From Moraxella nasicaprae (lineage in GTDB: Bacteria > Pseudomonadota > Gammaproteobacteria > Pseudomonadales > Moraxellaceae): a stretch of 32,000 nt of DNA. Within the stretch, counting starts at the first letter, position 1, and the number at the start of each line of letters is the position of its first letter. Shown piece after piece: positions 1 to 9,344 of this stretch. The notes beneath the pieces are model-generated. The model worked only from the letters and a program-made list of their open reading frames with translations. It ran no database searches and had not been told where the DNA came from. The stretch is taken from NCBI RefSeq assembly GCF_025643275.1, contig NZ_CP089977.1, positions 1,740,001-1,772,000 on the forward strand, in the 5' to 3' direction. The translations under genes and the position numbers were made by a program.

Positions 1-155
1 ATTTGGTAATTCTTTAATTTCTTTTTTGCCTAAAAATTAATACCCAAATCTTTGTTCTCTAAGGCTTTCTCAACTTCTTCTAGTGATGGCATTTTAAATA
101 CTCCTACAAAAAAAGTAACCATCATCATACACAATCAGCAACAAAATAGCAATGA

Positions 156-581
156 TTAGCCCATAATTTTATCAATCCGCTCCCCCAATTTCTGGGCAAA
201 GCGGCTTTCGGCATTACTTACATTGCCATCAAAAGCAGGGCGAATAAAGGGGATTGGCGGTCGCCCCCTTGCTCCATACTCTTCATGAAAGATGTAATAA
301 TAAGCATTTTGGCGGCTTTTGCGGCTGCCTTGAATTGCAACATAGATGGCGATTGCCGCACCGTCAATATTGGCAGAGTCGCCCTTTGTTAGTCTGCGAC
401 GCTTGATATTGGTTTTGATTACACCCGTTAAAAAAGGGGCGTTGTTCTTAGCCTGTTGCCACATCGGTGTACTGGCGAACATCAAGGACGAATACAGCAC
501 ACCGCCTGCGTCTTTGTTGCCGATTTCGTCTCGTAAGCGGTGTAGTTTGGCGTTCAGCTCGCTAAGTCCTTCAATTTTCAT
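156..581 (-). CDS. HK97 gp10-family head-tail/tail-completion protein
   Basis: 141 aa with the ...LTGVIKTNIK...HEEYGARGRPPIPFIRPAFD pattern typical of the HK97 gp10 family. It overlaps the stop of the upstream adaptor gene by 11 nt. Confidence 0.7.
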   Translation of the reverse strand: MKIEGLSELNAKLHRLRDEIGNKDAGGVLYSSLMFASTPMWQQAKNNAPFLTGVIKTNIKRRRLTKGDSANIDGAAIAIYVAIQGSRKSRQNAYYYIFHEEYGARGRPPIPFIRPAFDGNVSNAESRFAQKLGERIDKIMG

Positions 582-906
582 TGCTGACTGCCTTTAACAT
601 TAAGGTCAAATATTCCTTGCCACTCCCATTATCCGCCATCGGCTCGCCCACGATTTCATACATTCGCCCACCATATTGCACTCGCATTGTGCCATCAATA
701 TCATTACGATAACGGATTTTTGCCCGTGCCGTGATTTGGCTGTCTTGGGTTTGTCCTGCAATAATATCTTTGACCGATAAGGGCGTAAACTGCCCCCAAA
801 GCGTCAAAATATGTAGCCAATGCCCTGTTTGTACCGCTCCTGTGGCGGTGCGTTTGGTAACGGGCTGGTAGAGTTTTAGGCGGTGGCGAAGTGGCGTGGC
901 TTTCAT
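571..906 (-). CDS. Phage head-tail adaptor / head-closure protein (Phage_H_T_join-like)
   Basis: 111 aa. Shows the R-H-R..L...V......G......W......WGQF.PLS..D......Q....ITARAKIRYR..I....RV pattern of SPP1 gp16/HK97 gp9-like adaptors. Sits between the gp6-like and gp10-like genes. Confidence 0.7.
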   Translation of the reverse strand: MKATPLRHRLKLYQPVTKRTATGAVQTGHWLHILTLWGQFTPLSVKDIIAGQTQDSQITARAKIRYRNDIDGTMRVQYGGRMYEIVGEPMADNGSGKEYLTLMLKAVSNEN

Positions 907-922
907 GACTGTCTCTTAGTTT

Positions 923-1210
923 CTAAAAAGTGGGGGTGCGATAAGGGCTTAGTAATTGACGAACGGGGGCGGGTAAAAAGTTGCCAAATTCTGCCCCATT
1001 CTCGCTGTTTCTATTGTCATCAAGATAGCCTACCATGAGTAAGGTGGCGGTTTTTAGGCTTGGTAACATCTCATCGTTAATCTCGTCTGTGATGTAGTTT
1101 TTAACGGCATTTTCAGCAGTTTGCAGATAAATTGCCAAGATTGTGTCGTTACTGTCATCGTCATAACGCAGATGGTGTTTGACTTCATCAAGCGTGGCAA
1201 ACTCTGTCAT
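923..1210 (-). CDS. gp6-like head-tail connector (DNA-packaging/QLRG-type) protein
   Basis: 95 aa. N-terminal LDEVKHHLRYDDDSNDTILAIYLQTAENAV is typical of the Phage_connect_1 family. ATGA start/stop overlap with the portal gene. Confidence 0.7.
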   Translation of the reverse strand: MTEFATLDEVKHHLRYDDDSNDTILAIYLQTAENAVKNYITDEINDEMLPSLKTATLLMVGYLDDNRNSENGAEFGNFLPAPVRQLLSPYRTPTF

Positions 1211-2514
1211 TTTTTATCCCCTTTATCCAAAACTGCTCGTATTCTAAGGCGTGGCTTGACCGTCTTTTGTGGTTCAGTTTTTGGTGCATTGCCAAAAGGA
1301 TTGTCGCTGTTATCTCGTTTTGCCAACGCTGATAGGCTATAATTTTGCTGCTGCATCAGCGGAGACTCGCCACCGACCACAGGCGGTAGTCCAAGCATGG
1401 CACGGGCTTCATTGGGGCTAAAAATACCGCTTAGTGTGCCTTCTTTTAAGTACATAATTTGGCTGGTGCTATCCATACGGATAAGGGGGGATAAATCCGC
1501 CTCACATTCCACGCCTTCTTCAAGGTCAAGATGCTCATCAAGCAGGTTCTCAATCGCCTCGATGTAGTGTTGCAAACAGTCCGAATAATAAATCTCGTTC
1601 AAATCGGAAACTTTTTGACCTGCCTTTGCCTCACCCATACCGACTTTAAACGCTGGCACATGAAACACCGAGCAGACCGTTTCACTACTCATTTTTAGCT
1701 GTTCGATGGCTTGGGTGTCTGACGCACTCATGGCAATCGGCTCATATTTTGCCCCAGAGCCAAGCACGGCAATGCCACCACGATTGACACCGCTATAATT
1801 AGCTTGCCAATTTGCTTTGACTTCATCGGCTTTGCTTTGACTGATGTCGGTGGGGACGGATAAAATCCCAGATGGGCGAGAATTGTTACCAAACAGCGTG
1901 CGAGATTGGTTTTGGATTGACAGTCCAAGCCCCACGCTCAAATGACACGCCGTCAATGGCGAAAGACCCACAAGTGGGTGGTAAAAACAGTTAAAGCGGT
2001 CGTGAATGATTTCGCTCGCTGGCACGGTGGTTTCGGTCAGTCCAAAAAGTTTATCCGTGCTAATCTGATAAAAAACTTCGCCATCGTTGGACACAAGCAC
2101 CTTAACACGGTCAGGATTTAGCACCCATAGCTGATAGACATCGCTGAAAATGTCTCGTTGTTTCAAGATATACGCATTGCCACGCAGTAATTTACTGCTT
2201 ACCCAATTTTCAATAAACTGTTGCCAAGTTTGGTGCTTGTTCGGACGGTGCAGGATTGCTTGGCTACGAGATTTGGCAGGCAAAAGCACGCCATCTTGTA
2301 CCGACTTTGTGCGAATGCGGAGCTTGCCAATGTCGGTGCTAATCAAGCTCACACAGGCAAAAACAGCGTGAAAATGTGTCAAATCCGTGCGTTTGAGTTC
2401 GTCATTTTTTTGCCACGCCCCCATATAAGGTTCGCCCACAATGGGTAGCCAACCATTACCGCCATTTGAAATTGGGGTCAGCGATTTTTTCTTGAATAAA
2501 TCAAACAGTTTCAT
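1207..2514 (-). CDS. Phage portal protein, HK97 family
   Basis: 435 aa. Portal-family blocks are present (LLRGNAYIL, FNCFYHPLVGLSPL, NRGGIAVLGSGAKYEPI, SPNEARAMLGLPP). Confidence 0.9.
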   Translation of the reverse strand: MKLFDLFKKKSLTPISNGGNGWLPIVGEPYMGAWQKNDELKRTDLTHFHAVFACVSLISTDIGKLRIRTKSVQDGVLLPAKSRSQAILHRPNKHQTWQQFIENWVSSKLLRGNAYILKQRDIFSDVYQLWVLNPDRVKVLVSNDGEVFYQISTDKLFGLTETTVPASEIIHDRFNCFYHPLVGLSPLTACHLSVGLGLSIQNQSRTLFGNNSRPSGILSVPTDISQSKADEVKANWQANYSGVNRGGIAVLGSGAKYEPIAMSASDTQAIEQLKMSSETVCSVFHVPAFKVGMGEAKAGQKVSDLNEIYYSDCLQHYIEAIENLLDEHLDLEEGVECEADLSPLIRMDSTSQIMYLKEGTLSGIFSPNEARAMLGLPPVVGGESPLMQQQNYSLSALAKRDNSDNPFGNAPKTEPQKTVKPRLRIRAVLDKGDKK

Positions 2515-2526
2515 GCAAACCTGCCA

Positions 2527-2703
2527 TCAGCTTAATTCCAATTCTGCCGTTTTGTTAGTTTTTGCTTTGGACGGCTTAGGCTTTTTGTCCGCCACCGCTT
2601 CGGCAATGCCAAGCGTAATCAACACCTTTGCTTGGTCATCTGGCACTTCATGAATTTCGCCCATCGCTCCAAGCGGTGCGTCTTTTAGGTATTTGATTTG
2701 CAT
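2527..2703 (-). CDS. Small hypothetical phage protein (58 aa, below the ORF-track cutoff)
   Basis: Hand translation gives MQIKYLKDAPLGAMGEIHEVPDDQAKVLITLGIAEAVADKKPKPSKAKTNKTAELELS. AAGGGG RBS lies 6 nt upstream of the ATG at 2703. It fills the capsid-portal gap and ends 12 nt before the portal ATG. Confidence 0.4.
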   Translation of the reverse strand: MQIKYLKDAPLGAMGEIHEVPDDQAKVLITLGIAEAVADKKPKPSKAKTNKTAELELS

Positions 2704-2724
2704 TTTTAACCCCTTAATTAGCTA

Positions 2725-2786
2725 TTTTTGTTGTGAATAAGCTCTTTATCCACAACAAAAACAGCCCATTTTTGGACTGTTTTTTA
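2725..2786 (-). terminator. Two tandem hairpins downstream of the capsid gene
   Basis: Perfect 11-bp inverted repeat TTTTTGTTGTG (2725-2735) / CACAACAAAAA (2751-2761). A second hairpin, ACAGCCC (2761-2767) / GGACTGT (2775-2781), is flanked by A and T runs. Both lie 16-77 nt after the capsid stop. Confidence 0.45.
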
Positions 2787-2801
2787 AGTTTGGTTTAGGA
2801 C

Positions 2802-4148
2802 TTAGTCTGTGTATTTGATGAAGCCGACCGCCTTGGCATGGCGTTTTTTCCAGCGGATAAAGCGTTCGGCACGGATTGCCGTTAGGTTGTTTTGGAACAG
2901 ATTGACCAGATTTGGCGTGCGTTCATCACCTAAGTTGATGGTTGCTTCGTTCGACACCGAGAAATCCACACCGCCATCGTCGGCAAGCAGGATTTGGCTT
3001 GGGACAATCAGTACGATTTTATCGCCTAAGCTGCCAGAAGTATGCACAGGCAAGCCCTTAAATGAACGATTGCCCGTCAAGCTCATGCCTTCAAAATAGG
3101 TGCGACCAAGTGCATCACGCATACCGCTAATTTGCATCGCACGAGTTTCGCTCATGCCCCATACCGCCCCTTCTAGGCTAATGCCAGCGTCCACCAGCTC
3201 CTTGATAAGTGCATTGGTATCCGCATCAATCTTGTCAGCGGTCGCCCCTGTGGCGTTGATAGCCACCACACCGTTTAGCACCGATGCTGGTGATTCTGCG
3301 GCTTCTGCCTTGTCAGGGTCAAAAAATTGCTCATCAATGAACTGGGCAACAGTTGCCACCAAGTCATCACGCACCATCTGGTCAGCTTTTGGATTACTAA
3401 AACGAATCAGCTCATCAGACAGCAGTACAATGCCTGCGATTTTGGCGTGTCCTAGCGTCATTGAGCCAAATTGTGGGTTGCCAACTGGCTTCATTTTGCC
3501 TTCGCCCACCCAGCCAACCGAGCCACTGGCGGTCTGCATGGGGATTTTCACATTAAATGGCACTTGTCGCATTTGAGCGGCGATTTTATCCACCACGGTT
3601 TTTTGACGCACAAGGTCAATAAATTCGCCTGTCAAATTGGTATAATCAATGAGTTCTTTGCCAAAATTGGCATCGGTGGTCGTACCAGCCACCGCCTTTT
3701 GTGTCGCAGCATTGATGACGTTTTCTGGGGCGTTCCAGCCTTGCAGCACTTCACGGGTGGTAATGCCGCCTTTGGATTTGGTGGCAATGGCAGAGGCTTT
3801 GACCAGTAGGGCAAATCCTGTGCCTTTGGGCAGGTTGGATTCTACTTGCACGCTTTTGGTCTCTTTGGGGATAGTTTCGCCTTCGGCACTTGCTTTGGCT
3901 TGTTCTGGGTTTTCGCCACCAATTTCGGTAGGATTTGGGGCGGTTTCTACTGATTTAATGAGCTTTTGTAAGCGTTCAGCATTTTTTTCAAGGCGTGCGA
4001 TGTCGTCTTCTAACGCCTTAATTTGGGTCTCTTCATCATCATTGGGTGTGCGACCGCTTTTGACAGCTTTTGTCAAAATCTCGCCCATTTCTTTGCGTTT
4101 GGCTTCAATGGTGGCTTTGATTTGAGCCAGTTGTTGTGCATAAGTCAT
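2802..4148 (-). CDS. Major capsid protein, HK97 family, with N-terminal coiled-coil delta/scaffold domain
   Basis: 448 aa. The N-terminal ~100 aa are charged coiled-coil (AQIKATIEAKRKEMGEI...LEDDIARLEKNAERLQKLI), followed by an HK97-fold-type body. ATGA overlap with the protease stop. Confidence 0.9.
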   Translation of the reverse strand: MTYAQQLAQIKATIEAKRKEMGEILTKAVKSGRTPNDDEETQIKALEDDIARLEKNAERLQKLIKSVETAPNPTEIGGENPEQAKASAEGETIPKETKSVQVESNLPKGTGFALLVKASAIATKSKGGITTREVLQGWNAPENVINAATQKAVAGTTTDANFGKELIDYTNLTGEFIDLVRQKTVVDKIAAQMRQVPFNVKIPMQTASGSVGWVGEGKMKPVGNPQFGSMTLGHAKIAGIVLLSDELIRFSNPKADQMVRDDLVATVAQFIDEQFFDPDKAEAAESPASVLNGVVAINATGATADKIDADTNALIKELVDAGISLEGAVWGMSETRAMQISGMRDALGRTYFEGMSLTGNRSFKGLPVHTSGSLGDKIVLIVPSQILLADDGGVDFSVSNEATINLGDERTPNLVNLFQNNLTAIRAERFIRWKKRHAKAVGFIKYTD

Positions 4149-4759
4149 AATAACGATACTCCGCTTTTATTAGGTAAAATTAAAGCAACCGAGCCATCTG
4201 ACTGGTTGCTTTTTTGAGTTTGGGTGGGTGGTGGCTGGATTGGGTTAATCGGTGGATTTGGGGTTGGTTGCAGCGGCAGATTAAATGCGTCTTTGATTTG
4301 CTTGACGCTAGTAATAACCGCATCGGCATTAGCTGGGACGGTTACGACCGACAGCTCATACCATTCCCATTCCTTGATGTGTAAGCCCCACGAGCTTTCC
4401 AAATAATTGTATTCTTTGATTTTAAAGCCAACGGATAGGCATTTGACAAGCCCGCTTTTGATAGATTGCCACGCCTCATCGATACGGTCTTTTAATTTAC
4501 CATCATCAGCGATTTTGGCAATCTTGGCGACAATCTCAATACCTTTGTCTGTTACCGTTGCCGAAATCACTTCGCCAATCGGTTGATTATGATTGTGCTG
4601 CCACAGTAGCGGAATGGGTAGGGCAAATTTTGCCCCCAACGGCTCTAAAATGTCATCGTCCCTATCGGTACTGGGTGTGGTGGCAATGCCTGTAATAAGG
4701 CGTTCATCGTCCGTGTCGGTTACGGATTTGATTTGTAGGGTTGAGTAGGCTTTGGTCAT
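4145..4759 (-). CDS. Prohead maturation protease, HK97 family (peptidase S78/U35)
   Basis: MTKAYSTLQIKSV...ITGIATTPSTDRDDDILEP start; His motif LLWQHNHNQPIG; Ser motif LSVGF; ELSVVTVPANADA. The ATG at 4759 is preferred over the track's TTG at 4771. Confidence 0.85.
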   Translation of the reverse strand: MTKAYSTLQIKSVTDTDDERLITGIATTPSTDRDDDILEPLGAKFALPIPLLWQHNHNQPIGEVISATVTDKGIEIVAKIAKIADDGKLKDRIDEAWQSIKSGLVKCLSVGFKIKEYNYLESSWGLHIKEWEWYELSVVTVPANADAVITSVKQIKDAFNLPLQPTPNPPINPIQPPPTQTQKSNQSDGSVALILPNKSGVSLL

Positions 4760-4776
4760 AATTTTTTCCAATAAAA

Positions 4777-4797
4777 AACCGCCCTATGTAGGCGGTT
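4777..4797 (-). terminator. Rho-independent terminator closing the NYN cassette
   Basis: The minus strand reads AACCGCC-tacatag-GGCGGTT followed by TTTTTAT. It lies 19 nt after the NYN stop and before the protease start. Confidence 0.6.
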
Positions 4798-4815
4798 GGT
4801 TTTTGGTCTTTTTGG

Positions 4816-5493
4816 TTATTTTTGCTTTCGTTTGGTATGGTAAGTTGTCCGCAGTCCATCAATATGCTCAAACAAATCATCAGAAATCGGCTGGTGCATC
4901 GCATCTAGGATAAAGTCCACACCTTCACGCCGTGCCAGTTTGGCGGCAGGGACAAAATCGGCATCACCTGCAATCAGTACAATGCGATTGGCTTGCATTT
5001 TTAGGGCAACAGTCGCAATATCCACACCAATCCGCATATCTACGCCTTTTTGCATAATGTCAATGGTAAAATCATCATCCGTTAAATCACCCCATGCTTT
5101 CTTGTCTTTTAGGAGTTCGGATAGTACACGGGGTTTTAGTCGCCAGCCATTGCTATAATCAGATAATCTACCCAATCTCAGAGCAAATTTACGCTTTTGA
5201 ATCAGCTCTTTATGCAGTTCTCTGCGAAACACCGCTTCGTCTGATTTTGATAAATCCAGGGCTGTACGAGTCTTGGGGCGGTGCATTTTCTTTTCAAGAG
5301 GAGGGCAATCATAAAAGAAAACACGGTACAAATCGTCTGTTTGTGTGCTTTGATTGCGTAGTTTTAGATGTTCTAATGCCATACCCATTGCGACATCTGC
5401 CATCTTTTTGGCATTATAATGGTCGGTCTCTGGCAAATAATGGCGTAAGCGTTTGACAAAAAATGCTCCATCAATAAAAACAGCAGTTGTCAT
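4816..5493 (-). CDS. NYN/LabA-like (PIN-superfamily) predicted ribonuclease; prophage moron
   Basis: 225 aa from the ATG at 5493, with AAGGAA RBS 6 nt upstream. Carries the NYN acidic motifs AVFIDGAFF, QKGVDMRIGVD and LIAGDADFV. The track's 20-aa N-terminal extension is rejected. Confidence 0.75.
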   Translation of the reverse strand: MTTAVFIDGAFFVKRLRHYLPETDHYNAKKMADVAMGMALEHLKLRNQSTQTDDLYRVFFYDCPPLEKKMHRPKTRTALDLSKSDEAVFRRELHKELIQKRKFALRLGRLSDYSNGWRLKPRVLSELLKDKKAWGDLTDDDFTIDIMQKGVDMRIGVDIATVALKMQANRIVLIAGDADFVPAAKLARREGVDFILDAMHQPISDDLFEHIDGLRTTYHTKRKQK

Positions 5494-5583
5494 ACAATTT
5501 CCTTTAATTAACAAAAAAGCCCAAAGGATCGGCTCTTTGAATATGTACATCAAAGGCGTACTGCTAGGGGCTAGATGTGTGTA

Positions 5584-5612
5584 ATTATATTTACAACAAC
5601 ACCTTTTGTCAA
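5584..5612 (-). promoter_or_regulatory. Perfect consensus sigma70 promoter driving the NYN gene
   Basis: The minus strand reads TTGACA (5612-5607), a 17-nt spacer, then TATAAT (5589-5584). The promoter begins 8 nt after the terminase stop codon. Confidence 0.6.
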
Positions 5613-5619
5613 GCCAATA

Positions 5620-6714
5620 TCAAAAATAAATCCCCAGATCATCAGCCGACTTTGGCGGAGCGGGGTTTTGGCTCATCAAGGCAACAGCGTTTAGCATTGC
5701 AATGACGGGGTCAATCTTGCCATTGCCACTTTCTGATTTGCTCATCATCACGCCAGAACCTGACAGCTTGACCCTTGCATTGCCCACGCACCACGCCATT
5801 AACGGCTGGCTTGCGTGGGTTAGGTCACCGCTTGCGATTTTGCGTTCGCACACTTTTTGGTATCCGCCAAGGCGGTAGCCTTGCGACACACCTGTGATTT
5901 TACCTTCTTTGGGAATGCCAATGCTTTCAAGGGCGATGACAATATCGTCCGCCCCAGCAGGGTCAAGTCCAATGCGGTCAAGTTTACCGCTGTCATAGAT
6001 ACGCTTGGCAATATCGGCAAACTCCGCCACATCATCGCCCACATTTTCCACGATGACAAGGTCGCCATCTTTTTCAAAATCACGATAACGAGGCTCGTCT
6101 TGTTTGCGTCGCTCTAAGGCAATCGGGTGGCACCACGCTTTGACCCAGACCCACCATTGCTTAACCTCGTGGCGGATATTATTGTCATCTGTGTAGATGT
6201 ATTTTGGCGTAGGCAATCGCCCCACGACAGCACAGCCCAAAAGGTCATCAAGACCGCCACCATCTCCGCCCATTGTGATGACCTCACTTTTTTCAATCAG
6301 CTCATCAAGCGTAAACGCTCGTCCTGCCTTTTCCCAAAACTCTGCTCCTGCCCAGCGATTTGCTCGTAGGCTAATGCCAATGGGAATGTTGAGATGCTTG
6401 GCTAGGGCGGTTTGTAGCGTGTTTTTGTCGTGCGATTCTTTTGCTTTTCGCAAAATATCGGCAAGCTCATCAACGCCAACGCTCGCCCCAAGATTGGGGT
6501 TGGTAATGTACCAATTTTCAGGCTTGATATACTCGCCAGACTCGATGTAGCTTTGGGGAAACTCGAACAGTACAGGCAAAAATCTTGGGTCGTCAATCTT
6601 GCCATCTCGCACCGCTCGGGCGTAGTCCAGTTTTTCTTTAAACACCCCTGCGGGTGGCTCATCTGACATGGTGGTTAGCCAAATCACAAAGCCCTCATGA
6701 ATGAAAGTTCCCAA
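5620..6714 (-). pseudogene. terL: Large terminase subunit (Terminase_1-like), 5'-truncated; only the last ATPase motif and the nuclease domain remain
   Basis: The 364-aa remnant begins near the ITTAG-type motif (VIWLTTMSDEPP). It has no Walker A/B region and no ATG with an RBS; the track start is a TTG. Full-length family members are roughly 550 aa (from memory). Confidence 0.75.
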
Positions 6715-6877
6715 TTTTTTGACTTTGTATATCGGTTTTATTATTTGCTTTACTTGTGGTATATGGGGTTGGCAAGCAACAAATGGGTGGATTAGTTACT
6801 TCTTGATGGGCAACGCCATAGCTCTGTTTGCGATTCATTTAATCATGGCGATTTATTATATTGGAGCGAATAAATGA
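6701..6877 (+). CDS. Possible small two-TM membrane protein (58 aa), translationally coupled to the PrtN-like gene
   Basis: Hand translation gives MKVPNFLTLYIGFIICFTCGIWGWQATNGWISYFLMGNAIALFAIHLIMAIYYIGANK. Its stop overlaps the next ATG as ATGA. There is no clear RBS, and T-rich DNA yields hydrophobic ORFs by chance. Confidence 0.3.
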   Translation: MKVPNFLTLYIGFIICFTCGIWGWQATNGWISYFLMGNAIALFAIHLIMAIYYIGANK

Positions 6878-7152
6878 AACCACTTACCCCCAAAATCTCC
6901 ACCCAAGACTATCTATTTTTGCAGTTTGGGAAATTGGTGGTAGAACTTCGTGAAGTATGCCAAATTTATTATCCGCATTTAAGTCATACTGCGATGAACC
7001 GCACGGCAAGCGAACAAGGCTTTGCTTTTCCTTGCTTTCGCCTTGCCGATAGCCAAAAATCGCCGTATTTTGTCCATTTGTCCGACTTGGCGACCGCCCT
7101 TGACAAAGCAAAGAATGCGGTCAAGTCTAACCATTCAAAACTTCACGCATAA
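6874..7152 (+). CDS. PrtN-family (pyocin-activator-like) small DNA-binding protein; probable excisionase/regulator of the island
   Basis: 92 aa. LFLQFGKLVVELREVCQIYYPHLSHTAM...FPCFRLADSQKSPYFVHLSDLATALDKAK matches my recollection of the PrtN family pattern. It is convergent with the integrase and overlaps it by 26 nt. Confidence 0.55.
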   Translation: MKPLTPKISTQDYLFLQFGKLVVELREVCQIYYPHLSHTAMNRTASEQGFAFPCFRLADSQKSPYFVHLSDLATALDKAKNAVKSNHSKLHA

Positions 7153-8234
7153 CCTCATCAAAAGTGGGCGTGTTTGCCCGCTTATGTACCGACACATACT
7201 TTTGTAAACTCCCCCAACTTCTGTGCAGACTGACCGACTGGATTTGGGGGATTGTCATTCCAGTTTCGGCAAGTCGTGTACAGGCTTCGTGCCGTAAGTC
7301 GTGAAAATGCAAATCATCAATGCCAAGTAAATGACAGGCTTCTGTGAATAATTTACTTATTATCTTATGGCTTTCTGCCACCAAATAAGTGTCATTGGCG
7401 GTATGCTGTTTTAAAAGCTCAATGATTTGCCTTGCTTCTGGCAATACTGTAAATTTTTGATGGTTGCCAGCACTTCCTTTGGGGTTTTTGACATCTCGCA
7501 CCACAAACACATCGCCCAAATCGTCCGCCAGTTCTAGGCGGGTAATTTCGGCTTGCCGTCTGCCCGACAATAAGGCAAACCACATAATCAGGTGCATTGC
7601 CACACCGCCATTTTGCCATTTTTGATCAAAATGGGCAGTTAATTTAATCAACTCATCACTCGTTGGCAAGCGGTCTCGTTTATTGCTTGGTGCGACATTG
7701 CGAGTCTTTTTAAGCTGTTTTAAAGCTCGTTTTAGGGCGTTCATATCCAATTCCACCCCCCCACATAATTTCTGCGTGGTCTAGCACGCCAAAAAGGTAA
7801 GTAAATTCCGCCCCAAGCGTGGCAGGGGTGGTGGGGTCAAGGGCAAGCGACTTTACGCCAGTTTTACGCAGATTGGCGTGGTCGGTGATGTCAAGGGGAC
7901 TAATGGCGGTCAAAGGCAACTTGCTAATGGGAAATTTTTGCAAAAGCCTTAGGGCGTGCATTTTTGAGCGCCCAAAGCCTGCCCCAAGCTCGCTAATATA
8001 ACGGTCAATTGCATCGCTAACCGTCAAATCATCGCTGATGCCTTTTGCCCCAAACAAGAGTTTTGGATTGTCTTTTAATTCTTGTTCTCGCTTGGCTATC
8101 CACGCCTGAGCGAGTTTTTTTGTGCCAAAATTGGCAGATTCTCGGTAGGGCGGAAAACCTTGCTTACCGATACGAATTTCGGCATAATAACGACTGATAC
8201 CGTCTTTATTTTTGCGTGTGCGAATGCTACCCAT
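7127..8234 (-). pseudogene. int: dusA-associated tyrosine integrase, split by a 1-nt frameshift in a G7 homopolymer
   Basis: Track ORFs 7710-8234 (N-terminal SAM-like part) and 7127-7756 (catalytic part: LLSGRRQAEI, HDLRHEA, LQKYV Tyr) overlap in different frames. Removing one G from the run at 7756-7762 joins them as ...EIMWGVELDMNAL.... Confidence 0.85.
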
Positions 8235-8357
8235 TTTGATGACCTTTGATGATAATTTTACGCAAATTTTCCGTAAAAACTACAAAAATAATCAAAAACC
8301 CGCTAAAATCATCCAAAGTAATTTAAAATCGAAACCTTATAAAAGGCTTATATATCA

Positions 8358-9344
8358 ATGCTTTCCCTACAAAATCATTTAAAATCAAATACTAAAAGAA
8401 TATCGGTTGCTCCGATGATTGACTGGACAAGCAGTCATTATCGTACCTTTGCACGGCTGTTTAATCCTAACATTTATCTTTATACCGAGATGATTAGCAC
8501 GGGGGCGATTTTAAAGGGAGATACCGCTCATCATTTGCGTTTTTTTGATAATGAACCGCCTCTTGTGCTACAACTTGGCGGAAGTAATCCTACCGAGCTT
8601 GCTCAATGTGCCAAACTTGGGCAAGACTACGGTTATACTGAAATTAACCTAAATGTCGGTTGCCCCTCCGACCGTGTCCAGTTTAATAAAATTGGGGCGT
8701 GCTTGATGGCAGAAGCTTCCCTTGTGGCGGACTGTGTCAAGGCGATGAAAGATAATTGCGATTTGCCTGTTACCGTCAAGCACAGGATTGGCATTGATAA
8801 TTTTGACAGTTATGAATTTATGCGTGATTTTGTGGGGACGGTGGCAGAGACTGGTTGTACGCATTTTATTGTTCACGCTAGGATTGCGATTTTAAACGGC
8901 TTATCGCCCAAAGAAAACCGTGAAATTCCGCCCCTGCGTTATGATGATGTTTATCGTTTAAAACAAGAATTTCCAGAGCTTTTTATAGAAATCAATGGTG
9001 GCATTAAAACCCTTGATGAAATCAAAACGCACCTAAATTTCGTAGACGGCGTGATGATTGGGCGAGAGTTTTATCACAATCCAATGCTGTTGGGGCAATG
9101 CAATGAACTTTGGGGTAGGCAAGCACCCACCCATCAAGAAATTTTTGATAAACTTTTGATTTTATTAGAAAATTTTGAAAAAACGGGCGTGCCATTGACA
9201 CTTGTGATGAGGCACTATTTGGGGCTATTTCAAGGTTTGGCAGGCTCTCGCAAATGGCGACAGGCATTAAGTGGGCAAAAATCTTTAAGCCTATCACAAA
9301 TTGAGCAAGCAGGGCGAGCGGTACTTGCTCAAAATGCAGGCTGA
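8358..9344 (+). CDS. dusA: tRNA-dihydrouridine(20/20a) synthase DusA
   Basis: 328 aa. SVAPMIDWTSSHYR, LYTEMISTGAI, LQLGGSNP, EINLNVGCPSDRV, HARIAILNGLSPKENREIPPL and GLFQGLAGSRKWRQ are collinear with E. coli DusA. Confidence 0.9.
   Translation: MLSLQNHLKSNTKRISVAPMIDWTSSHYRTFARLFNPNIYLYTEMISTGAILKGDTAHHLRFFDNEPPLVLQLGGSNPTELAQCAKLGQDYGYTEINLNVGCPSDRVQFNKIGACLMAEASLVADCVKAMKDNCDLPVTVKHRIGIDNFDSYEFMRDFVGTVAETGCTHFIVHARIAILNGLSPKENREIPPLRYDDVYRLKQEFPELFIEINGGIKTLDEIKTHLNFVDGVMIGREFYHNPMLLGQCNELWGRQAPTHQEIFDKLLILLENFEKTGVPLTLVMRHYLGLFQGLAGSRKWRQALSGQKSLSLSQIEQAGRAVLAQNAG

Follow-up and report, generated by a model that had tools for sequence, protein, structure and literature searches.

A conserved structured leader RNA accompanies a LabA-like NYN gene in a Moraxella nasicaprae prophage remnant and in other phages, plasmids and chromosomes

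We analysed a stretch of 32,000 nucleotides from Moraxella nasicaprae (contig NZ_CP089977.1, positions 1,740,001 to 1,772,000 of the forward strand; in the following called the window and numbered from its first letter), in which a prophage remnant carries a small cassette for a predicted RNase of the NYN/LabA-like type. Between the promoter of this cassette and its ribosome-binding site (RBS) lies a structured leader RNA, and this RNA is conserved together with the protein in many bacterial phyla and on phages and plasmids, with the order promoter, leader, RBS and NYN gene kept in well over 100 loci. We give about an even chance to the reading that the cassette is a horizontally mobile, RNA-controlled and potentially toxic RNase module carried as a moron in a defective, dusA-integrated prophage. 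The original prediction for this DNA had seen no protein antitoxin with the gene; a conserved protein partner is indeed lacking, but the conserved structured leader RNA had been overlooked.

The leader RNA, the cassette and its protein

The leader was first seen in an alignment of the cassettes from the window, Moraxella phage Mcat4, M. nasibovis and Neisseria lisongii, in which the approximately 68 nt from the -10 hexamer to the RBS are better conserved than the coding sequence. Mcat4, from which the window gene differs by a synonymous divergence (Ks) of 0.455, has only one or two changes in these 68 nt, and N. lisongii, with saturated Ks, still matches at 54 of 68 positions. Using an nhmmer search and then a covariance model (R1), with which the window leader scores 73.6 bits (E 3e-24), we found the element in 68 of 80 genome loci, in each case directly upstream of NYN and in the same orientation. 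These 68 loci span at least seven phyla, namely Proteobacteria, Acidobacteria, Verrucomicrobia, Planctomycetes, Elusimicrobia, Bacteroidetes and Firmicutes, and there was no confident match at any other place in 1.48 Mb. Of 80 viral loci about 59 have the leader as well, and it was further found on plasmids of Xanthomonas and Aeromonas, weakly in C. jejuni, and in the phages phiE202, Dorea DO134P1 and Javan85, the last with a Firmicutes variant. The model gives one match per locus, and likewise one in the window, with no tandem repeats.

The leader is a hairpin shaped like a terminator, with two helices (P1 and P2) that are separated by an internal loop and followed by a U-run (Table 1), and this structure is well supported by covariation. 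In a plain MAFFT alignment of 40 sequences 13 of the 16 pairs show compensatory changes, and 87.8% of the cells are paired versus 72.3% in shuffles, with none of 500 shuffles reaching the observed values; in slid controls 20–56% of the cells are paired. A model-based alignment of 77 sequences raises the compensatory pairs to 16 of 17, and RNAalifold independently returned the same structure together with a covarying A-U/C-G closing pair. For the isolated 70-nt leader the minimum-energy fold is the consensus itself (-15.9 kcal/mol), and the U-run is conserved across the alignment.

The internal loop is nearly invariant. On the 5' side the internal loop reads C A G U A (A/C), the first five letters being found in 37, 38, 40, 40 and 40 of 40 sequences, and on the 3' side C G A N C (40, 37, 40, variable and 39 of 40), while the AU of the apical P2 loop is invariant in 40 of 40. 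An AGUA opposite GA(A/N) is characteristic of the bulged-G (loop E, sarcin-ricin) module, on which proteins frequently dock, and the internal loop would fit this class. The leader begins with CAUC(C) (5577–5573), a word that returns in the apical loop of P2, often as CAUCC around the invariant AU; it may serve as a recognition or cleavage site present twice, or it may signal the start of transcription. In most of about 60 loci a promoter-like pair of hexamers lies at a fixed distance, which places the expected transcription start at the conserved CAUC in front of P1 (~5577).

Only 22 nt separate the U-run from the ATG, which is too short for a promoter, so NYN can be made only from transcripts that read through the hairpin. 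When the RBS is included in the folding (5485–5583, minus strand), the minimum-energy structure of the window RNA changes and CCUUUGAU, the 5' half of P2, pairs with AUUAAAGG at the RBS and not within the consensus hairpin (z = -2.7). This alternative fold may couple termination and translation, or it may have arisen by chance from the repeated CUUUG/CAAAG words. A cmscan of positions 4600–5800 against Rfam 15 with E values up to 10 gave no family and only chance matches of at most 21 bits, and we found no description of the element in the literature searched. The leader RNA appears to be undescribed.

The cassette around the leader had been correctly recognised in the original prediction, as the 225-amino-acid (aa) open reading frame (ORF), the perfect sigma-70 promoter, the AAGGAA motif and the closing hairpin with its T-run are all present, although on the minus strand. 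The promoter (12/12 consensus) is the sole match of this quality in a 3-kb scan for TTGACA-17-TATAAT, and its -35 hexamer starts at the 8th base past the stop codon of the large terminase gene (terL). Both hexamers are identical in Mcat4 and M. nasibovis despite a differing spacer. The terminator hairpin (4797..4777) combines a stem of 8 bp, five of them G-C, with a T-run, it folds with a z-score of -3.9 (equally stable shuffles: 0 of 200), its palindrome also reads as a hairpin on the plus strand, and including the 3' untranslated region it is 100% identical in Mcat4. Since promoter hexamers, leader and terminator are all conserved in this phage, the cassette signals are not due to chance.

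The encoded protein carries the motifs FIDGAFF, QKGVDMRIGVD and IAGDADFV at aa 6–12, 148–158 and 174–181, as had been claimed, and judging from its sequence it belongs to the LabA/COG1432 group of NYN proteins as a divergent member. It is 100% identical to a database protein of M. nasicaprae. Pfam NYN (PF01936) is matched above the gathering cut-off (31.2 versus 24.2 bits), covering aa 147–198 only (profile positions 73–124 of 145), and all listed homologues carry PF01936. A full-length match was obtained with phrog_5783 (E 4e-91), a PHROG family of unknown function, and an NCBIfam search gave nothing meaningful. As the original prediction had supposed, the gene is no named defence system: among the models of PADLOC-DB v2 the only match is a weak and partial one to the generic model PDLC01154 'NYN' (22 bits, aa 150–209 versus profile positions 230–287 of 310). 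An insertion of roughly 80 aa (about aa 65–145) lies inside the NYN core, and the aspartates D8, D62, D152, D158, D177 and D179 are invariant in 50 homologues of 53–89% identity. The AlphaFold2 model (mean predicted local distance difference test score 88.9) shows alternating strands and helices and supports a PIN-like three-layer alpha/beta fold. A Foldseek search with this model against BFVD gave 'NYN domain protein' and 'LabA-like/DUF88' matches (E 7e-7 to 4e-4, probability 1.00, template modelling scores 0.39–0.52), and phmmer found no relative in the PDB. The ratio of nonsynonymous to synonymous divergence (Ka/Ks) of the gene is 0.07–0.16. Database labels for the family read only "NYN domain-containing protein", "helicase" or "Cpp15", the last given to the homologous gp9 in the record of phage phiE202. 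No biochemical function has been demonstrated for the LabA/COG1432 group (PMC5499597), and in the literature searched we found none described for the family studied here.

A cargo cassette of phages, plasmids and chromosomes

The original prediction had described the cassette as a moron, and indeed promoter and terminator enclose a gene that lies within a late operon and is present or absent among related phages. Mcat4 carries the NYN gene directly past the terminase (88.9% identity), while in Mcat1, 2, 3, 5 and 6 the terminase and head genes on either side are present without NYN. Two of these five were inspected, Mcat1 (L008 2838–3671) and Mcat5 (L007 2838–3671), and in both a type II methylase similar to Dam (PADLOC MTase_II, E 4e-103) occupies the slot between terL and the protease gene. 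In Mcat4 a Bro-N protein (L009 2822–3400) lies beside the NYN gene, and the uncultured viral contig L125 repeats the window order of terL (571 aa, full length), NYN and protease. As the contents of the terL–protease junction vary in this way, it is a regular cargo slot of this phage group and not the unusual insertion point that had been proposed. Between window and Mcat4 the Ks of the NYN gene is 0.46, compared with 1.0–1.4 for terL, protease, capsid and portal, which argues for an exchange of the cassette more recent than the divergence of the phage backbones. The cassette is thus a true cargo gene.

Table 1. Coordinates of the cassette and of the neighbouring prophage genes in the window
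Feature	Position	Strand	Remarks
Sigma-70 promoter	5612..5584	-	-35 TTGACA 5612..5607, 17-nt spacer, -10 TATAAT 5589..5584
Leader RNA (NYN-leader motif)	5510..5577	-	68 nt; between promoter and RBS
Leader P1	5572..5564 paired with 5526..5518	-	9 bp
Leader internal loop	5563..5558 opposite 5531..5527	-	CAGUAC opposite CGAUC
Leader P2 hairpin	5557..5532	-	8 bp and one-base bulge
Leader U-run	5518..5513	-	directly after the hairpin
RBS AAGGAA	5499..5504	-	5 nt upstream of ATG; read from the sequence
NYN/LabA-like (COG1432-type) predicted metal-dependent RNase	4816..5493	-	ATG, 225 aa, stop TAA
Intrinsic terminator closing the cassette	4770..4797	-	AACCGCC-UACAU-GGGCGGUU then U6
Portal	1207-2514	-	full length
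DUF7302	2527-2703	-	
Major capsid protein	2802-4148	-	full length
Prohead serine protease (S78)	4145..4771	-	downstream neighbour; Pfam PF04586; full length; 83% identity to the Mcat4 protein over 203 aa
Large terminase terL, 5'-truncated	5620..6714	-	upstream neighbour; 364 aa; phrog_9 positions 350-674
PrtN (pyocin activator)/excisionase-like gene	6874..7152	+	between truncated terL and integrase
Tyrosine integrase, two frames	7127..8234	-	frame broken at G7 run near 7754-7760; adjoins dusA

The remnant itself occupies positions 1–8300 as the right end of a prophage with its genes on the minus strand, in the order tail-completion, head-closure, Ad1 adaptor, portal, DUF7302, capsid, protease, NYN, terL fragment, PrtN-like gene and integrase. 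It abuts dusA (8358..9344), a known integration hotspot, on its 5' side; no tRNA gene is located in the window, and its remaining part holds housekeeping genes (glmM, pdxH, lolA and the nuo operon). That terL is truncated, as had been noticed before, was borne out by tblastn with the full-length TerL of L125 and Mcat4, since only the equivalent of residues 215–571 is left. The approximately 215 missing residues belong to the N-terminal part, which in this protein family carries the ATPase Walker A motif. The PrtN/excisionase-like gene marks the junction of the deletion that took away the entire early region together with the 5' third of terL. The integrase does lie in two frames, with the break in a G7 homopolymer, where it could be a sequencing error or slippage variant and not true decay; its DNA gave no match when compared with phage records. 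The cassette had been singled out as intact amid decay, and intact it is, but not uniquely so, because protease, capsid and portal (83–84% identical to their Mcat4 counterparts) and the connector genes are full length as well. With intact head genes and an integrase lesion in a G7 run, the argument from intactness to retention by selection is weak.

The NYN subfamily extends far beyond this phage group. At E <= 1e-5 it gave over 7,900 sequence clusters, and it was found in the genomes of at least 575 species, 527 IMG/VR viral contigs, 65 phage records (including 48 Stx2a phages) and on 167 plasmids, of which 129 are conjugative and mainly of the Campylobacter pTet type. Even among Moraxella its occurrence is patchy. 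The lambdoid phages of E. coli have the gene directly downstream of cI, between cI and N, in the slot that belongs to rexAB in phage lambda. The homologue there has a C-terminal extension of about 60 aa, and in E. coli phage ev099 (L004 5862–5988) it is preceded by its own TTGACG-17-TAGATT promoter and a long hairpin with U7. A homologue is present in 275 of 5426 complete E. coli genomes and is common in the Stx2a prophages of O121:H19. Streptococcus phage Javan85 carries it between XRE repressor and integrase, and the P2-like Burkholderia phage phiE202 in its variable region, between a BrnT toxin-antitoxin pair and the integrase. Since these positions are lysogeny or accessory slots, expression in the lysogen is implied.

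In 37 of 68 distinct IMG/VR loci the gene lies within about 3 kb of a contig end, for which the chance estimate is about 17% on contigs of ~38 kb, and the neighbours include 11 tyrosine and 4 serine recombinases, XRE repressors with ImmA peptidases, lysozymes, small terminases and portals. The chromosomal copies of M. nasibovis (82% identity) and N. lisongii (62%) stand between ordinary genes. A conserved protein partner or antitoxin was sought in the neighbourhoods and none was found, the sizes and families of the neighbours differing in nearly every locus. The lack of conserved synteny argues for repeated independent insertion, and the pattern of contexts is that of a solitary, repeatedly inserted mobile cassette similar to toxin-antitoxin modules and unlike that of a defence-island resident.

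The leader does not always precede an NYN gene. In four metagenome contigs (L213, L245, L323 and L259) it stands directly before other genes, twice PRiA4_ORF3 and once each DUF3800 and ORF6N, so that the leader may be a control module open to use with other cargo. On the Xanthomonas plasmid pXAS42, PRiA4_ORF3 is found again, here as the neighbour convergent with NYN.

Proposed mechanism and competing explanations

For the RNA-controlled module we propose that host RNA polymerase would transcribe the cassette in the lysogen and that most transcripts would stop at the leader hairpin, acting as a terminator or attenuator, which would give an abundant RNA of ~65–70 nt and low read-through into NYN. 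The invariant internal loop would be the docking or cleavage site of a protein, most economically of NYN itself, and the leader RNA would restrain the nuclease, either through negative feedback on the mRNA from which NYN is made or in the manner of the antitoxin RNA of type III systems. If this balance were upset, for example by transcription shut-off by another infecting phage, free NYN could cleave cellular or phage RNA, and the module would then act as a toxin/abortive-infection or exclusion module to the benefit of the prophage. An anti-phage role of the cassette is plausible as a hypothesis, although the chromosomal copies do not lie in defence islands. A bolder proposal, which we make tentatively and consider doubtful, is that NYN and leader represent a new and very widespread class of RNA-antitoxin (type III-like) toxin-antitoxin or abortive-infection systems with a sarcin-ricin-type bulged-G loop on a single-hairpin antitoxin. 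In such a class the loop could mimic the natural target of the nuclease, e.g. the sarcin-ricin loop of 23S rRNA, and leader-only copies in phage contigs could act as decoys.

Loci that keep the leader and lose the gene bear on the question of toxicity. In a pattern scan of metagenome contigs, for which P1 pairing and the U-run were required, about 68 true motifs were found. Of these, ~46 stand before a complete NYN gene and ~6 before one with an internal deletion, and for the other ~16 the gene is missing or reduced to its first 10–30 codons; in viral contigs 9 of about 25 motifs are leader-only and 2 have degraded genes. Examples of leader-only or truncated loci are L102, L120, L094, L103, L104, L110, L115, L121 and L097 from IMG/VR, all with a high covariance-model score, and L243, L275, L277, L313 and L318 among the metagenome contigs, with full P1 pairing and U-run. 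Such frequent loss of the ORF would be expected for a costly toxin with a harmless RNA partner, which is suggestive only. The leader-only loci could be decay remnants or retained trans-acting RNAs, and we did not accept them as proof of trans-acting decoys, as several with their first 10–30 NYN codons are deletion remnants.

Several observations weigh against an RNA-controlled toxic module. The excess of leader-only loci is partly built in, as the scan chose intact leaders and a 68-nt target is struck less often than a 680-nt ORF. Regarding the protein, a Foldseek search against the PDB gave no significant match, and the stretch D152–D179 aligns weakly (E 0.69) with DxxxG...GDGDF of the solved NYN protein 2qip, with only the C-terminal GDxDF motif in register, while the N-terminal Asp is placed at the catalytic position by motif resemblance only. 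The leader is not universal either: the canonical form is absent from the NYN loci of Rhodanobacteraceae, and the E. coli lambdoid phages have kept the hairpin and U7 but lack the CAGUA/CGA loop. As some clades thus have NYN without the canonical leader, the RNA cannot be a universal obligate antitoxin. Moreover it is a single hairpin, in contrast to the tandem direct repeats of type III antitoxins. The chromosomal contexts point in the same direction. In 63 genome loci the ORF caller recovered NYN, and a Pfam census of the 125 genes immediately beside it found heterogeneous and mostly housekeeping genes, with 3 integrases and 1 phage tail gene. About 7 of the 125 match any PADLOC model, so that the copies are not enriched next to defence genes. 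Finally HEC-09, a solitary NYN candidate of different architecture in Hma defence loci and so far the only one tested, gave no defence against the phages tested (bioRxiv 10.1101/2024.01.29.577857).

These contexts also make an ordinary cellular RNase a serious rival, namely a LabA-type enzyme of RNA processing or regulation that controls itself by its 5' leader and hitch-hikes on phages and plasmids, often carried by mobile elements with no role in conflict. Many RNases and RNA-binding proteins control their own mRNA via a 5' leader, and the conserved leader is what an autoregulated RNase would have. A Ka/Ks of 0.07–0.16 reflects ordinary purifying selection, most chromosomal homologues have neither integrases nor defence genes as neighbours, and LabA-type proteins have been tied to gene regulation in cyanobacteria (PMC5499597). 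A cellular RNase is less easily reconciled with the lack of conserved synteny, the patchy distribution even within one genus, the frequent loss of the ORF and the many copies in viral contigs, phage records and mostly conjugative plasmids, typically in lysogeny modules or at prophage edges. Homologues that are overwhelmingly chromosomal housekeeping genes had been named beforehand as speaking against a defence role; this holds for most of the chromosomal copies and not for those in phages, which occupy lysogeny or moron positions. On balance we regard the cellular RNase as rather unlikely.

Less probable still is a protein-only, single-gene anti-phage defence or toxin without partner, as in the original prediction; the hairpin would then be a mere spacer or the terminator of the terL transcript. 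No conserved protein neighbour accompanies the gene, a generic NYN model exists in PADLOC, and the positions downstream of cI in E. coli lambdoid phages and in the variable region of P2-type phages would suit such a function. The hairpin, however, lies downstream of the cassette's own promoter and travels with the gene into chromosomes and plasmids without terL, and a generic terminator would keep neither invariant unpaired letters nor compensatory pair changes. We therefore rejected the leader as a terL terminator, as it also accompanies the NYN gene outside phages.

A function in the lytic cycle, such as host mRNA shut-off, late-transcript processing or a counter-defence RNase, seems very improbable to us. 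The cassette is embedded in the late packaging and head operon in the same orientation, and phage endoribonucleases such as T4 RegB exist, but it has its own consensus host-type promoter and terminator, occurs as an identical module outside phages, sits in lysogeny modules and not in late operons in other phages, and is dispensable, being absent from five of the Mcat phages named above. The least probable explanation is a riboswitch-like OFF/ON element that senses a small ligand or signal and would tie NYN expression to a metabolite or to stress without contact to the NYN protein, for which the conserved loop within a terminator stem, the pairing of half of P2 with the RBS in the alternative window fold and the few leaders before other genes could be cited, but the hairpin with its two helices is very simple, the loop would fit a protein-docking module and not a ligand pocket, and no anti-terminator is conserved across the alignment.

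Related systems and implications

By analogy the module would work most like a type III toxin-antitoxin/abortive-infection system or like AbiF-RCd22, with two defining features of type III lacking. In common with ToxIN, CptIN and TenpIN it combines promoter, structured non-coding RNA, terminator and a gene for a (here predicted) endoribonuclease; small size, mobility, a scattered occurrence on phages, plasmids and chromosomes and the lack of a protein antitoxin are further common traits. Besides the missing repeats it differs in its NYN fold, which is not that of the ToxN/AbiQ, CptN or TenpN toxin families. In AbiF-RCd22 from a C. difficile prophage, a structured leader RNA lowers transcription and neutralises the toxin in cis and trans (bioRxiv 10.1101/2025.04.15.648962), showing that also a single structured leader RNA, and not only tandem repeats, can neutralise a toxin. 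Both systems are prophage-borne, and in both the 5' leader of a gene for an RNA-targeting protein (predicted for NYN, toxic in AbiF-RCd22) contains a structured RNA that is conserved and free of repeats. They differ in the protein (Abi_2/HEPN-like versus NYN) and in the RNA, as the abiF-motif is unrelated.

The other relatives are more distant in organisation. HEC-09 is likewise a single-gene NYN candidate for defence and has conserved MARF1-like aspartates, but it possesses an N-terminal helix-turn-helix-like domain, stands in another context and no leader RNA has been reported for it. With the LabA-like NYN proteins (PF01936, COG1432; PIN-like superfamily) the window protein shares the N-terminal hhhIDG and C-terminal GDxDF motifs, the invariant aspartates and the predicted alpha/beta fold, and it differs by the restricted Pfam alignment and the insertion described above. 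Classical HK97/lambda morons and lambda rexAB are similar as promoter–gene–terminator units in a late operon that vary among related phages, whereas the cargo here is a predicted RNase with its own cis RNA element and the unit also occurs outside phages. The NYN gene comes from a family that is known but has not been characterised, and as a moron the cassette is of the usual build, while the pairing of RNA and protein is new to the databases searched.

The LabA-type NYN proteins are one of the largest PIN-like groups without known biochemical function, and the specific, covarying leader RNA, which accompanies the gene almost everywhere, now gives this family a concrete and testable partner together with a likely recognition motif. 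The leader is also a candidate structured RNA class not represented in Rfam, and with NYN it may form a second non-repeat RNA–toxin pairing after AbiF-RCd22. If the nuclease is toxic and gated by its RNA, RNA-antitoxin systems would be extended to a new nuclease fold, and the retention of this gene in the lysogeny regions of temperate phages from many hosts, among them the Stx2a phages of E. coli O121, would find an explanation.

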